Shown one piece after another: positions 23,472 to 24,977 of a stretch of 64,000 nt of DNA; position 1 is the first letter of the stretch, and every line of letters starts with the position of its first letter. The translations under genes were made by a program, and so were the position numbers. The stretch lies in IMG/VR virus record IMGVR_UViG_3300029922_000040. One strand, 5' to 3'. The notes under the pieces were generated by a model, which saw only the letters and a list, made by a program, of their open reading frames with translations, was not told where the DNA came from and searched no databases. This DNA is from a virus. Lineage: Duplodnaviria > Heunggongvirae > Uroviricota > Caudoviricetes.

Positions 23472-24977
23472 ATGGCTACTGCAACGGATGTGAGGATACT
23501 CGAAGCTAAGATGTTTGTCGCGGTGAATACCGCCGACAACAACAACAAATTTTGGAAGTATGAGCGCCTGTCTGCCCCCGTCACCGAGACCAACAACAAG
23601 AACAACTCCGAGACAGGTGACACTCGCATCACATGGGGTCGCGTAGGTGCGGCCAAGCCTGACCAGCAACTTATCATGTGGGATGTGACCACCATCGCTG
23701 GCAAGGTAGCCGACAAGACCGATACCAACAAAAAGGAAGTCATTAGCCGCCTCTCTTCGGGGCAAGGTCTGGACGGGCTGTCTCGCAAGGGCAAGCGTGA
23801 CGACTACTACACTGAAGTTAAGACCATCGGTAACTCCACTCAGTCGTCACCGACGACCGCCATCCAAGTGGGACAGAAGCTGGCGAACGACCAAGTCCGC
23901 AAGCTGGCCGTCGCTGAGATTGCCGGTGGGTGCCAAATCACCGCCGCTCTCGTGAAAAAGCTGGCCGAAACCAACCGACATGAACTCGTCGCTGCCACGT
24001 CCAAGGACAACAAGGGCGTAGACGGTGGTGGCATGGACATTGACCTTGAGACCGGCATGGTGAAGACCCCCCTCGGCGTGCTCACGCTCGATGCCATCAA
24101 GGAAGGTCGTGTGATTCTTGACCGGATGCTTCCCTTTGTCCAGCGTGCCGACACCGACTCCAAGTCATACATTACCTTGTTCGACCAATACCTTCGCAAC
24201 ATCCCCCAGTTCATCGGGTACAAGCGTGGGGCGCATGTAGACTTCATCAACATCGCCGCTCAGAACTCACTGCTTGACCAGTTGGAGACTTCGGTTGACC
24301 TTGCATTGCAACGCATGAAGGACGCTGAGGAAGCTGCCAAGGCACCGGGCACAAAGGCACCTGAAGCTGTCAAGCAGCAAAGCTTCTTCGAGTGCAAGCT
24401 ACGGCTGCTGGATGAGGCCATTGAGAAGGCCATTTGGGAGCGCATCAGGAAGTCCTTCTTCGCGACCGTGAACTACGGCCACACGTCTTCCAGTCTCAAG
24501 CCGGTGCGGATGTACGAAGTTACCATCCCGCACATGGTTCAAGCGTTCGATGCAGACGGTAAGAAGGTTGGTAACGTGCGTGAACTGTGGCACGGTACCC
24601 GCGTGTTCAACATCCTGTCTATCCTCAAGCGCGGCTTTGTCCTGCCGGGGGCGTTAACTTCCGCTCAGATTTGCGGTGCCATGTTCGACAACGGCGTATA
24701 CTTCTCAGACCAGTCCACCAAGAGCCTGAACTACTCACAGGGCTATTGGGACGGCGGCAGCAAGGACAACAACTGCTACATGTTCCGTGCGGATGTTGCC
24801 ATGGGTAAGCCTTACATCCCGACCGGACCTGATAACCGTGCAGCATCCTACTGCAAGAGGAATGGATTTGACTCCTGCCACGCAGTCGCCAATCGCTCAG
24901 GTGTTCGCAACGACGAGCAGATTGTCTACCGCACGTCGCAGACCAACATCCGCTACCTCATCGAGTTCAACAAGTAA
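23472..24977 (+). CDS. poly(ADP-ribose) polymerase-like protein: WGR domain plus PARP catalytic domain with intact H-Y-E
   Basis: WGR segment: KFWKYERL...TRITWGRVG. Catalytic segment: LWHGTRVFNILSILKRGF...GAMFDNGVYFSDQSTKSLNY...DEQIVYRTSQTNIRYLIEF, which aligns to PARP1 LLHGSR...[20 protein letters not shown]...NEYIVYD..LKYLLKLKF. Confidence 0.8.
   Translation: MATATDVRILEAKMFVAVNTADNNNKFWKYERLSAPVTETNNKNNSETGDTRITWGRVGAAKPDQQLIMWDVTTIAGKVADKTDTNKKEVISRLSSGQGLDGLSRKGKRDDYYTEVKTIGNSTQSSPTTAIQVGQKLANDQVRKLAVAEIAGGCQITAALVKKLAETNRHELVAATSKDNKGVDGGGMDIDLETGMVKTPLGVLTLDAIKEGRVILDRMLPFVQRADTDSKSYITLFDQYLRNIPQFIGYKRGAHVDFINIAAQNSLLDQLETSVDLALQRMKDAEEAAKAPGTKAPEAVKQQSFFECKLRLLDEAIEKAIWERIRKSFFATVNYGHTSSSLKPVRMYEVTIPHMVQAFDADGKKVGNVRELWHGTRVFNILSILKRGFVLPGALTSAQICGAMFDNGVYFSDQSTKSLNYSQGYWDGGSKDNNCYMFRADVAMGKPYIPTGPDNRAASYCKRNGFDSCHAVANRSGVRNDEQIVYRTSQTNIRYLIEFNK

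Follow-up and report, generated by a model that had tools for sequence, protein, structure and literature searches.

A WGR–HD–ART protein encoded by an uncultured jumbo phage

We analyzed a 64,000-nucleotide stretch of Caudoviricetes DNA (IMG/VR record IMGVR_UViG_3300029922_000040), hereafter the window, with a focus on a gene at positions 23472–24977 that encodes a homologue of the poly(ADP-ribose) polymerases (PARPs). PARPs that combine a WGR domain, a helical domain (HD), and an ADP-ribosyltransferase (ART) domain are central to DNA-break signalling in eukaryotes, and their prokaryotic and viral relatives are little studied. The gene starts with an ATG, preceded by GAGG 12 nucleotides upstream, and encodes 501 residues (57 kDa). 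Promoter and terminator scans around it gave nothing above the expectation for shuffled sequence. Its features are as follows.

23472–24977 (+): PARP homologue gene, WGR–HD–ART, including the stop codon (from the list of open reading frames, ORFs)
23496–23816 (+): WGR domain, approximately residues 9–115, with NNNKFW at residues 23–28 and W55-G56-R57 (profile alignment, Foldseek, model strands E9–68 with pLDDT >90)
23835–23897 (+): low-confidence linker between WGR and HD, residues 122–142 (pLDDT <50 in the model)
23886–24371 (+): HD (PARP_reg) domain, approximately residues 139–300 (Pfam, alignment to PARP1 687–784, helices at 139–290 in the model)
24384–24974 (+): ART (PARP catalytic) domain, approximately residues 305–501, at the C-terminal end of the protein (PF00644; PDB matches to PARP4, 2e-15, and PARP1, 8e-14)
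24591–24593 (+): codon of H374 in the motif LWHGT, aligned to PARP1 H862 (HMMER)
24699–24701 (+): codon of Y410 in the motif GVYFSD, aligned to PARP1 Y896 (HMMER)
24915–24917 (+): codon of E482 in the motif DEQIVY, aligned to the catalytic E988 of PARP1 (HMMER)

Pfam searches with the single sequence returned PARP, PARP_reg, and WGR, and no other domains. The catalytic domain (PF00644) was well above its cut-off (residues 323–499, E = 5.3e-21, 75.5 bits vs. 26.7), whereas PARP_reg (residues 192–289, E = 1.8e-4, 22.0 vs. 26.8 bits) and WGR (E = 0.025, 15.1 vs. 22 bits) stayed below theirs. A match to the PHROG 23333 profile (E = 8.6e-44) places the protein in the phage PARP/PART family. With a profile of the family, the alignments to PARP2 (6usj, E = 2.4e-32) and to the WGR-CAT fragment of PARP1 (4dqy_C, E = 7e-32) both began at profile position 12 and extended to the C-terminus, and fragments comprising HD and ART were matched with E values of about 1e-29. 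In these alignments, NNNKFW lies opposite NNNKYY of PARP2 and WGRVG lies opposite WGRVG; the literal WGR motif is formed by W55-G56-R57 (nucleotides 23634–23642). Several relatives carry precomputed matches to both PF05406 (WGR) and PF02877 (PARP_reg).

An AlphaFold model built on the family alignment (pLDDT 81.4, pTM 0.71) had its best Foldseek matches among the WGR–HD–ART structures of DNA-bound PARP2 and PARP1 (E = 1e-23 to 1e-21, approximately 540 aligned columns), with TM scores of 0.58/0.63 against 4dqy_C. The WGR domain contains a 13-residue β-hairpin insertion (residues 30–46) that is common to about one third of the family. Because the family profile, the Pfam matches of the relatives, and the model with its Foldseek matches all point to them, we consider the WGR and HD domains established. 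The PARP1/2/3-type architecture of WGR plus catalytic domain that had been proposed in a preliminary description of this DNA is thereby borne out, with the HD as an additional element; of the HMMER searches suggested there, the one with the catalytic model succeeded with the single sequence, and the WGR domain emerged with the profile and the structural model. Among 56 relatives, terminal extensions amount to at most 16 residues before the WGR domain and 0 to 2 residues after the ART domain. The protein is thus predicted to be a minimal WGR–HD–ART enzyme with the three-domain order of PARP1/2/3.

Catalytic, NAD+-binding, and regulatory residues

In the HMMER alignments, H374, Y410, and E482 are located opposite the motifs LLHGS, GIYFSD, and DEFVVY of PARP4 and LWHGSR, GIYFAD, and NEYIVY of PARP1. 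The preliminary description had read the H-Y-E triad from the same three motifs, and when the alignment was inspected for a His or Glu falling elsewhere, both residues stayed at the catalytic positions of PARP1 and PARP4. Conservation was counted in an alignment of 56 family members with identity down to 40%. The His and the Tyr are present in 56/56 and the Glu in 55/56, the sole exception being an alignment gap. K417, S418, and Y421, which correspond to K903, S904, and Y907 of PARP1, are found in 56/56, 55/56, and 56/56 sequences, respectively, and the equivalent of G863 is invariant or nearly so. Taken together, these residues predict a PARP1-like NAD+ pocket with an intact triad throughout the family. 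In the WGR domain, N23 (56/56), G56 (56/56), and R57 (55/56) are similarly conserved, and the position of W55 is occupied by Trp, Tyr, or Phe in 54/56.

In PARP1, L713, L765, and L768 are leucines of the HD core, and mutating them relieves autoinhibition. With the numbering anchored on V687-E688, their counterparts are L216, L268, and L271, each of which is invariant or reaches a conservation of 90% or more. The same point regarding HD leucines and autoinhibition has been made for bacterial PARPs (PMC5966428).

Relatives, distribution, and comparison with known enzymes

The identical PARP, with gene order kept, was found on 19 contigs that derive from independent samples in ENA, Logan, and JGI. 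Since the same protein recurs in independent samples, the gene is real and stable, and it belongs to a phage that is recurrent across several metagenomes. Identical copies of the PARP and of one neighboring protein on a contig of 247,905 bp imply a jumbo phage genome of at least 248 kb. Close relatives (45–80% identity) all come from uncultured metagenomic contigs, whereas the PARPs of isolated phages are only 28 to 37% identical (tblastn to XacN1, Xoo-sp13, CM1, RAS14, and FBKp34, E = 1e-59 to 2e-37). The top bacterial relatives in GTDB genomes reach at most 38% identity. A near-identity DNA search with the 20–30 kb segment against 50,697 phage records gave no match. Locus searches of IMG/VR with a single PARP or major vault protein (MVP) sequence likewise returned nothing, and the loci discussed below were recovered with alignments instead.

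Phage PARPs are already catalogued, and the 501-residue protein joins a known family. Iyer et al. rank PARTs with the commonest ART families of viruses and note their presence in jumbo phages (PMC9503650, PMC7824862). Annotated PARP genes exist in the isolated phages XacN1, Xoo-sp13, and FBKp34, and in Cellulophaga phages. The catalogued examples, from Xanthomonas (the jumbo phages XacN1 and Xoo-sp13), Stenotrophomonas (CM1 and RAS14), Klebsiella (FBKp34), and Cellulophaga (phi4:1), are of the same family and architecture and mostly stem from jumbo or large phages.

Compared with the core of PARP2, PARP3, and PARP1, the phage protein has the same domain order, H-Y-E triad, and G863/K903/S904/Y907 equivalents, the same NNNK[FY][WY] and WGR motifs and HD leucines, and a D-loop of the same length, and DNA-bound PARP2 and PARP1 are its best matches by both profile and fold. 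It differs in its low identity (approximately 17–20%), in lacking the N-terminal tail, zinc fingers, and BRCT domain, in the 13-residue WGR hairpin, and in an Asn at the position of Y986; no HPF1 or PARG (poly(ADP-ribose) glycohydrolase) partner was seen. Also related are HaPARP (Herpetosiphon aurantiacus) and CdPARP (Clostridioides difficile), stand-alone WGR–(HD)–ART proteins of about 47–52 kDa in which the first WGR position also varies between Trp, Tyr, and Phe. These two are the bacterial PARPs that have been assayed in vitro (PMC5966428, PMC8120803). Bacterial PARPs are paired with a DUF2263-type PARG, whereas none occurs in the window, that is, in 64 kb of a genome of at least 248 kb. 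The ART enzymes Alt, ModA, and ModB of phage T4 are of the same class of phage-encoded, NAD+-dependent ADP-ribosyltransferases; they are, however, mono-ARTs with a cholera-toxin-like R-S-E signature and without WGR or HD, while the protein studied here belongs to the H-Y-E clade. A compact, zinc-finger-free PARP of 57 kDa with all catalytic and regulatory hallmarks conserved would be a tractable model.

Gene context of PARPs in other phages

IMG/VR yielded 12 PARP loci of the clade of the window and 71 loci of a second clade, from gut phages (L236–L306). Gene linkage was counted in both directions by scanning every ORF within ±10 kb with profiles.

In the gut-phage clade, a 150-residue TARG1-like macrodomain adjoins the PARP in 65 of 71 loci, and in about 50 loci its gene stops 6 to 40 nucleotides before the PARP start, as exemplified by L291 (macrodomain, 9533–9985; PARP, 10001–11209). 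This protein is a full-length homologue of TARG1/OARD1 (E = 3e-24 to human TARG1) in which the equivalents of K84 and D125 are kept. Around the pair lie genes for the Pol III alpha subunit, DnaG, DnaB, an NAD+-dependent LigA-BRCT ligase (nearby in 36 loci), ERCC4, and PD-(D/E)XK proteins. Judged from these sequences, TARG1 and PARP look like a near-obligate gene pair and a conserved writer–eraser pair. Many of the contigs of this clade come from one IMG sample (3300045988).

A set of loci from the wider clade of the window, with PARPs 36 to 45% identical to that of the window (L006–L014), shows a comparable setting, with genes for topoisomerase II subunits, a deoxynucleoside monophosphate (dNMP) kinase, Endonuclease_NS, thymidylate synthase, and a MazG-like protein as neighbors. 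In five of these loci (L008, L010, L011, L012, and L014), the PARP is directly followed by a Nudix gene (PF00293, 5.9e-13); Nudix genes occurred within 10 kb of the PARP in 6/14 loci compared with 0/80 control loci. A PARG signature was absent within 10 kb of the 14 clade-A/LR756500 PARPs and of the 71 gut-clade PARPs. Phage PARPs are hence typically located in replication/repair blocks and have as a partner an enzyme for the removal or recycling of ADP-ribose, and this comparative context provides testable leads on their function. We found no description of the TARG1–PARP pairing, or of the breadth of phage MVPs addressed below, in the literature examined; such descriptions may exist elsewhere.

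Genes surrounding the PARP in the window

Between 1 and 47 kb of the window, almost every gene is on the + strand. The main annotated genes are listed here.

L307:1767–2738: Ku homologue (PF02735), just outside the window and about 2 kb before MVP
2–2557 (+): full-length MVP homologue, 851 residues (MVP_shoulder 4e-23, Vault_3 3.9e-10, profile match to human MVP 1.6e-26)
5311–5853 (+): member of the A1S_2505 family, with a predicted macrodomain fold and as such a candidate for binding or hydrolyzing ADP-ribose
6652–7545 (+): core of an ATP-dependent DNA ligase, LigD-like, as in nonhomologous end joining (DNA_ligase_A_M 1.4e-13; best NCBIfam match TIGR02779, 4e-20)
14599–15639 (+): fusion of HNH and RNA ligase, between MVP and PARP (RNA_ligase 2.1e-31, HNH 6.6e-8)
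19269–20516 (+): ClpX/ClpB-like AAA_2 ATPase (PADLOC PDC-M37B, 2.5e-25)
20973–22181 (+): TnpB (IS605-type), 1.3 kb upstream of the PARP (Cas12f1-like_TNB 3.8e-9, OrfB_IS605 8.2e-7)
28622–29896 (+): enzyme of the CCA-adding/poly(A) polymerase family
32598–35654 (+): helicase (ResIII/Helicase_C) fused to a methyltransferase
40138–40713 (+): DUF262/GmrSD_N protein (PADLOC NsnA, 1.1e-18)
62359–64000: terminase large subunit, running off the end of the window (phrog_36964, 1.7e-34)

The window thus holds the same ingredients as the repair blocks of other clades (a macro fold, a DNA ligase, Ku, and an RNA ligase), scattered over 26 kb. The preliminary description had pointed to an MVP homologue, a DNA ligase, and a Gly-loop protein at this locus, and all three are real: the ligase is of the ATP-dependent type and the Gly-loop protein is the member of the A1S_2505 family with the predicted macro fold. 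The latter had no significant match in Pfam or the PDB with either its single sequence or a profile, and its hhalign probability against TARG1-like macrodomains was 12%. Ku, the LigD-type ligase, the macro-fold protein, the RNA ligase, and the CCA-adding enzyme make up a DNA-end toolkit of this phage.

Three loci (L095, L096, and L100) share with the window the order A1S_2505, ligase, g18540, ClpX-like gene, and have no PARP within 10 kb downstream. Synteny with relatives ends after the ClpX-like gene, and the TnpB gene that follows is a marker of a variable region. TnpB (20973–22181) was present in all six of the sampled copies listed for this region; neither a TnpA gene nor an Rfam match for an omega-RNA was found. 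The idea that the PARP is cargo of an IS605/TnpB element was rejected, proximity being its sole support.

MVP and PARP rarely occur together

Homologues of MVP are common among large uncultured phages, with at least 116 loci in IMG/VR, of which the best 80 were kept, in addition to those in LR756500, LR756501, and LR756503 (loci L015–L094, L001, and L002). Within 10 kb, their recurrent neighbors are an RNA-ligase-like protein, an AAA_33 kinase, metallophosphoesterases, and a vWA-like DUF2828+DUF7788 protein, the last of these lying directly upstream in 35 loci. NADAR genes occur near MVP in 20/80 loci compared with 0/80 control loci, and three loci hold a textbook bacterial-type PARG, NPGGGFLQGSRAQEE (L047:15978–16799, L060:16501–17322, and L062:16783–17604). 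Given these recurrent neighbors, phage MVPs appear to lie in islands of RNA-repair and ADP-ribose-processing genes.

PARPs are seldom part of these islands. A PARP was present within 10 kb of MVP in one of the 80 viral MVP loci, and on the same contig also in one of the 80, for PARPs detectable by the scan patterns. In the reverse direction, MVP was found near the PARP in 0/13 loci of the clade of the window and 2/71 of the second clade, which gives 2/84 for all viral PARP loci; among bacterial PARP loci the count was 0/54. Complete phage records show the same picture, with 16 carrying a PARP, three carrying an MVP, and only LR756500 carrying both, so that 15 of the 16 PARP-positive records are without MVP; the two MVP-positive records of 735 kb, LR756501 and LR756503, are without PARP. 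The A1S_2505 family was near none of the MVP or PARP loci in these counts and is not co-inherited with PARPs. In the window itself, the MVP, ligase, and macro-fold genes are 16 to 21 kb away from the PARP. The suggestion that these genes and the PARP form one module is not supported, and we conclude that the PARP is a free-standing accessory gene.

Eukaryotic vaults contain a PARP of their own, PARP4, which docks to MVP repeats 3–5 via a C-terminal MINT domain (PMC12280208), and the preliminary description had drawn an analogy to it. PARP4 shares HD and ART domains with an H-Y-E triad with the phage protein, and the phage genome also encodes an MVP. However, PARP4 has BRCT, VIT, vWA, and MINT domains and no WGR, whereas the phage protein does have a WGR, stops at the ART domain with at most two residues to follow, and contains no MINT, vWA, VIT, or BRCT domain, nor room for any. 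The analogy therefore fails on architecture. PARP4 was also rejected as the closest relative, as the family profile scored about 115 bits for PARP2/PARP1 and 82 for PARP4. A 2023 preprint reported two known viral MVPs and no vPARP or TEP1 matches in them.

A vault-like module, in which the PARP would be the enzymatic partner or cargo of a phage MVP cage, mirroring PARP4, can nevertheless draw on several observations. Three divergent phage lineages have both MVP and a WGR-PARP, with a distance of 21 kb in the window, of 6 kb in LR756500/L236, and, in L270, of 1.8 kb between MVP and a macrodomain–PARP pair. In LR756500, genes for a macrodomain, a Gly-loop protein, MVP, a DFP-like protein, an HD-kinase, an HNH-RNA ligase, an AAA+ ATPase, and the WGR-PARP share one strand within 12 kb; the HNH-RNA ligase is again between MVP and PARP, and a 40% identical homologue is found in L001. 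Furthermore, the top PDB match of the single sequence is the PARP4 catalytic domain, phage MVP loci often include ADP-ribose-processing genes (NADAR and PARG as described above, and the macrodomain gene in LR756500), and the shoulder of human MVP binds NAD+/ADP-ribose (PMC12280208; bioRxiv 10.64898/2026.05.01.722283). Of that human pocket, phage MVPs retain K-P-K..H but not R507, P508, R511, D521, F522, and W545. PARP1/2 outrank PARP4 once the family profile is used, and no gene resembling vault RNA or Y RNA was found in the window, where tRNA and Rfam scans gave nothing. Together with the linkage counts in viral and bacterial genomes, the complete phage records that hold one gene without the other, and the absent docking domains, this makes such a partnership very unlikely. 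Since the counts are 1/80 and 2/84, syntenic relatives lack the PARP, and there is no MINT domain, a dedicated MVP+PARP module is not supported, and neither is the vault analogy as a general rule. The MVP–PARP link is intriguing but unsystematic, so the finding itself does not amount to a new system. That some giant phages have a vault-like MVP cage working with a WGR-PARP writer and macrodomain, NADAR, or PARG erasers, with the window as one of three MVP–PARP-linked lineages, is a long shot; if true, the eukaryotic vault–PARP4 partnership would have a viral/prokaryotic counterpart or antecedent.

Proposed role of the phage PARP

On balance, and with moderate confidence, we favor the view that the protein is a catalytically competent minimal PARP, encoded as a free-standing accessory gene of a jumbo phage, with a role in replication, repair, or end handling. 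By analogy with PARP1–3 and the two bacterial PARPs, the WGR domain would bind a break or an end in DNA, or possibly RNA; binding would destabilize the HD and open the NAD+ site, and the enzyme would then ADP-ribosylate itself and nearby proteins or nucleic-acid ends. HaPARP and CdPARP auto-PARylate in vitro with NAD+ and activated DNA (PMC5966428, PMC8120803). The site of action would be phage DNA during replication, repair, or end handling, or the broken host chromosome, rather than the inside of a vault. An ADP-ribosyltransferase activated by nucleic-acid breaks is favored because PARPs in other clades lie in repair blocks next to ADP-ribose-processing genes. Of the ADP-ribosylation module for host takeover or repair envisaged in the preliminary description, the vault part falls away, but the link between PARP, macrodomain, and ligase is real in the gut-phage clade and a repair-linked function is a reasonable idea.

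Several observations weigh against this proposal. The replication/repair context is borrowed from relatives that are 36 to 45% identical or more distant, since the own neighborhood of the PARP is not conserved: an 80% identical PARP (P0001) has entirely different neighbors. The immediate neighbors in the window are small ORFs without annotation, TnpB before and an HNH gene after the PARP. No PARG, Nudix, or canonical macrodomain eraser is adjacent to it, and PARG (GGG-X6-8-QEE) and Nudix signatures were found in none of the ORFs of the window. Of a genome no shorter than 248 kb, the analysis covers the 64-kb window and the 5 kb before it. The H-Y-E triad is necessary but insufficient for chain synthesis, PARP3 and PARP4 being mono-acting. 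At the position of PARP1 Y986, 54/56 relatives have Asn (N480 here), and PARP4 has Asp, making polymer formation by the phage enzyme uncertain. Finally, no biochemical characterization of any phage PARP was found in the literature examined.

Among the alternatives, an effector of host takeover or anti-defence, which would mainly ADP-ribosylate host proteins, like Alt, ModA, and ModB of T4, or drain NAD+, has in our judgment a minor though appreciable chance of being right. Such a drain would inactivate the host's NAD+-dependent ligase or forestall immunity that is based on NAD+, with the phage relying on ATP-dependent DNA and RNA ligases of its own, and the phage-encoded ligases fit such a scenario. 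So does the position of the PARP in a long same-strand region rich in genes of accessory or counter-defence type (TnpB, HNH, DUF262/GmrSD_N, a CRISPR array, and a ParS/Xre protein), and surveys by the Aravind laboratory read phage PARP/PART enzymes in this way (PMC7824862, PMC9503650). Set against this are the WGR domain and the autoinhibitory HD leucines, which are family-wide and point to an activity gated by nucleic acid rather than to a constitutive toxin, the absence of any PADLOC match for the PARP (scans of the MVP and A1S_2505 proteins gave none either), and the placement of the PARP in replication/repair blocks, not takeover blocks, in two other clades. A catalytically dead or purely NAD+/DNA-binding pseudoenzyme, for which nothing specific speaks, is hardly credible, as the catalytic and NAD+-contact positions are all invariant or nearly so in 56 relatives.

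PARP1–3 have been shown to modify terminal phosphates on DNA ends, and the phage enzyme could have terminal DNA or RNA phosphates as its main substrates. ADP-ribose caps would then protect or mark phage ends or cleaved RNAs, and the macro-fold protein would strip the caps before sealing by Ku and ligase or by the RNA ligase. DarG and TARG1, which act on nucleic-acid-linked ADP-ribose, are the closest fold relatives of the macro-fold protein in the window and the sequence relatives of the gut-clade macrodomain. In three lineages (the window, LR756500, and L270), repair islands with RNA ligase/kinase genes contain or adjoin the PARP, and Ku and a LigD-like ligase are encoded by the same phage. 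On the other hand, the idea is purely inferential, and no sequence feature separates protein from nucleic-acid acceptors; 18 kb separate the PARP from the macro-fold gene, which is not co-inherited with PARPs, and Ku is near no other PARP. We regard end capping as improbable. In order of probability, replication, repair, or end handling comes before host takeover or NAD+ drain, which comes before nucleic-acid end capping, with the vault last.

Further observations in the window

A gene for a T4 rIIB-like protein accompanies Ku upstream of MVP (L307:413–2738, approximately 2–4 kb before window position 1). Ku and the LigD-type ligase core, 4 kb downstream of MVP, possibly form a phage end-joining or end-protection pair; Ku was found near none of the 300 other PARP or MVP loci (0/300). 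An 87-residue ORF (13506–13769) repeats the HNH N-terminal part of the HNH-RNA ligase fusion located 1 kb downstream, with a similar LLTRDEFR..ARD..TC motif, and could represent a homing-endonuclease module that was duplicated or has degenerated. The gene for the terminase large subunit has two matching stretches with a weak LAGLIDADG_3 match (residues 374–424) between them, suggesting an insertion of an intein or homing endonuclease.

A CRISPR array at 38685–39468 consists of 13 copies of the 36-nucleotide repeat CCTGTAGACTTACTGGATTTGAAGGCTGAATCCAAC, with a period of 66 and spacers of about 30 nucleotides. Directly upstream is an ORF of 856 residues (36024..38594) that gave no Pfam, PHROG, or PDB match and has weak matches to Cas12u1/Cas12f at residues 741–844 (E ~1e-5). 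No Cas1 or Cas2 gene was seen near the array. Array and ORF probably constitute a compact phage-encoded type V CRISPR-Cas system.

Xre/MbcA/ParS domains in toxin–antitoxin systems neutralize RES-type toxins that degrade NAD+. Such a C-terminal antitoxin domain is located internally (residues 938–986, E = 5.9e-7) in a protein of 1325 residues (55300–59277); it may provide an anti-defence function within this large, perhaps virion-associated, protein.

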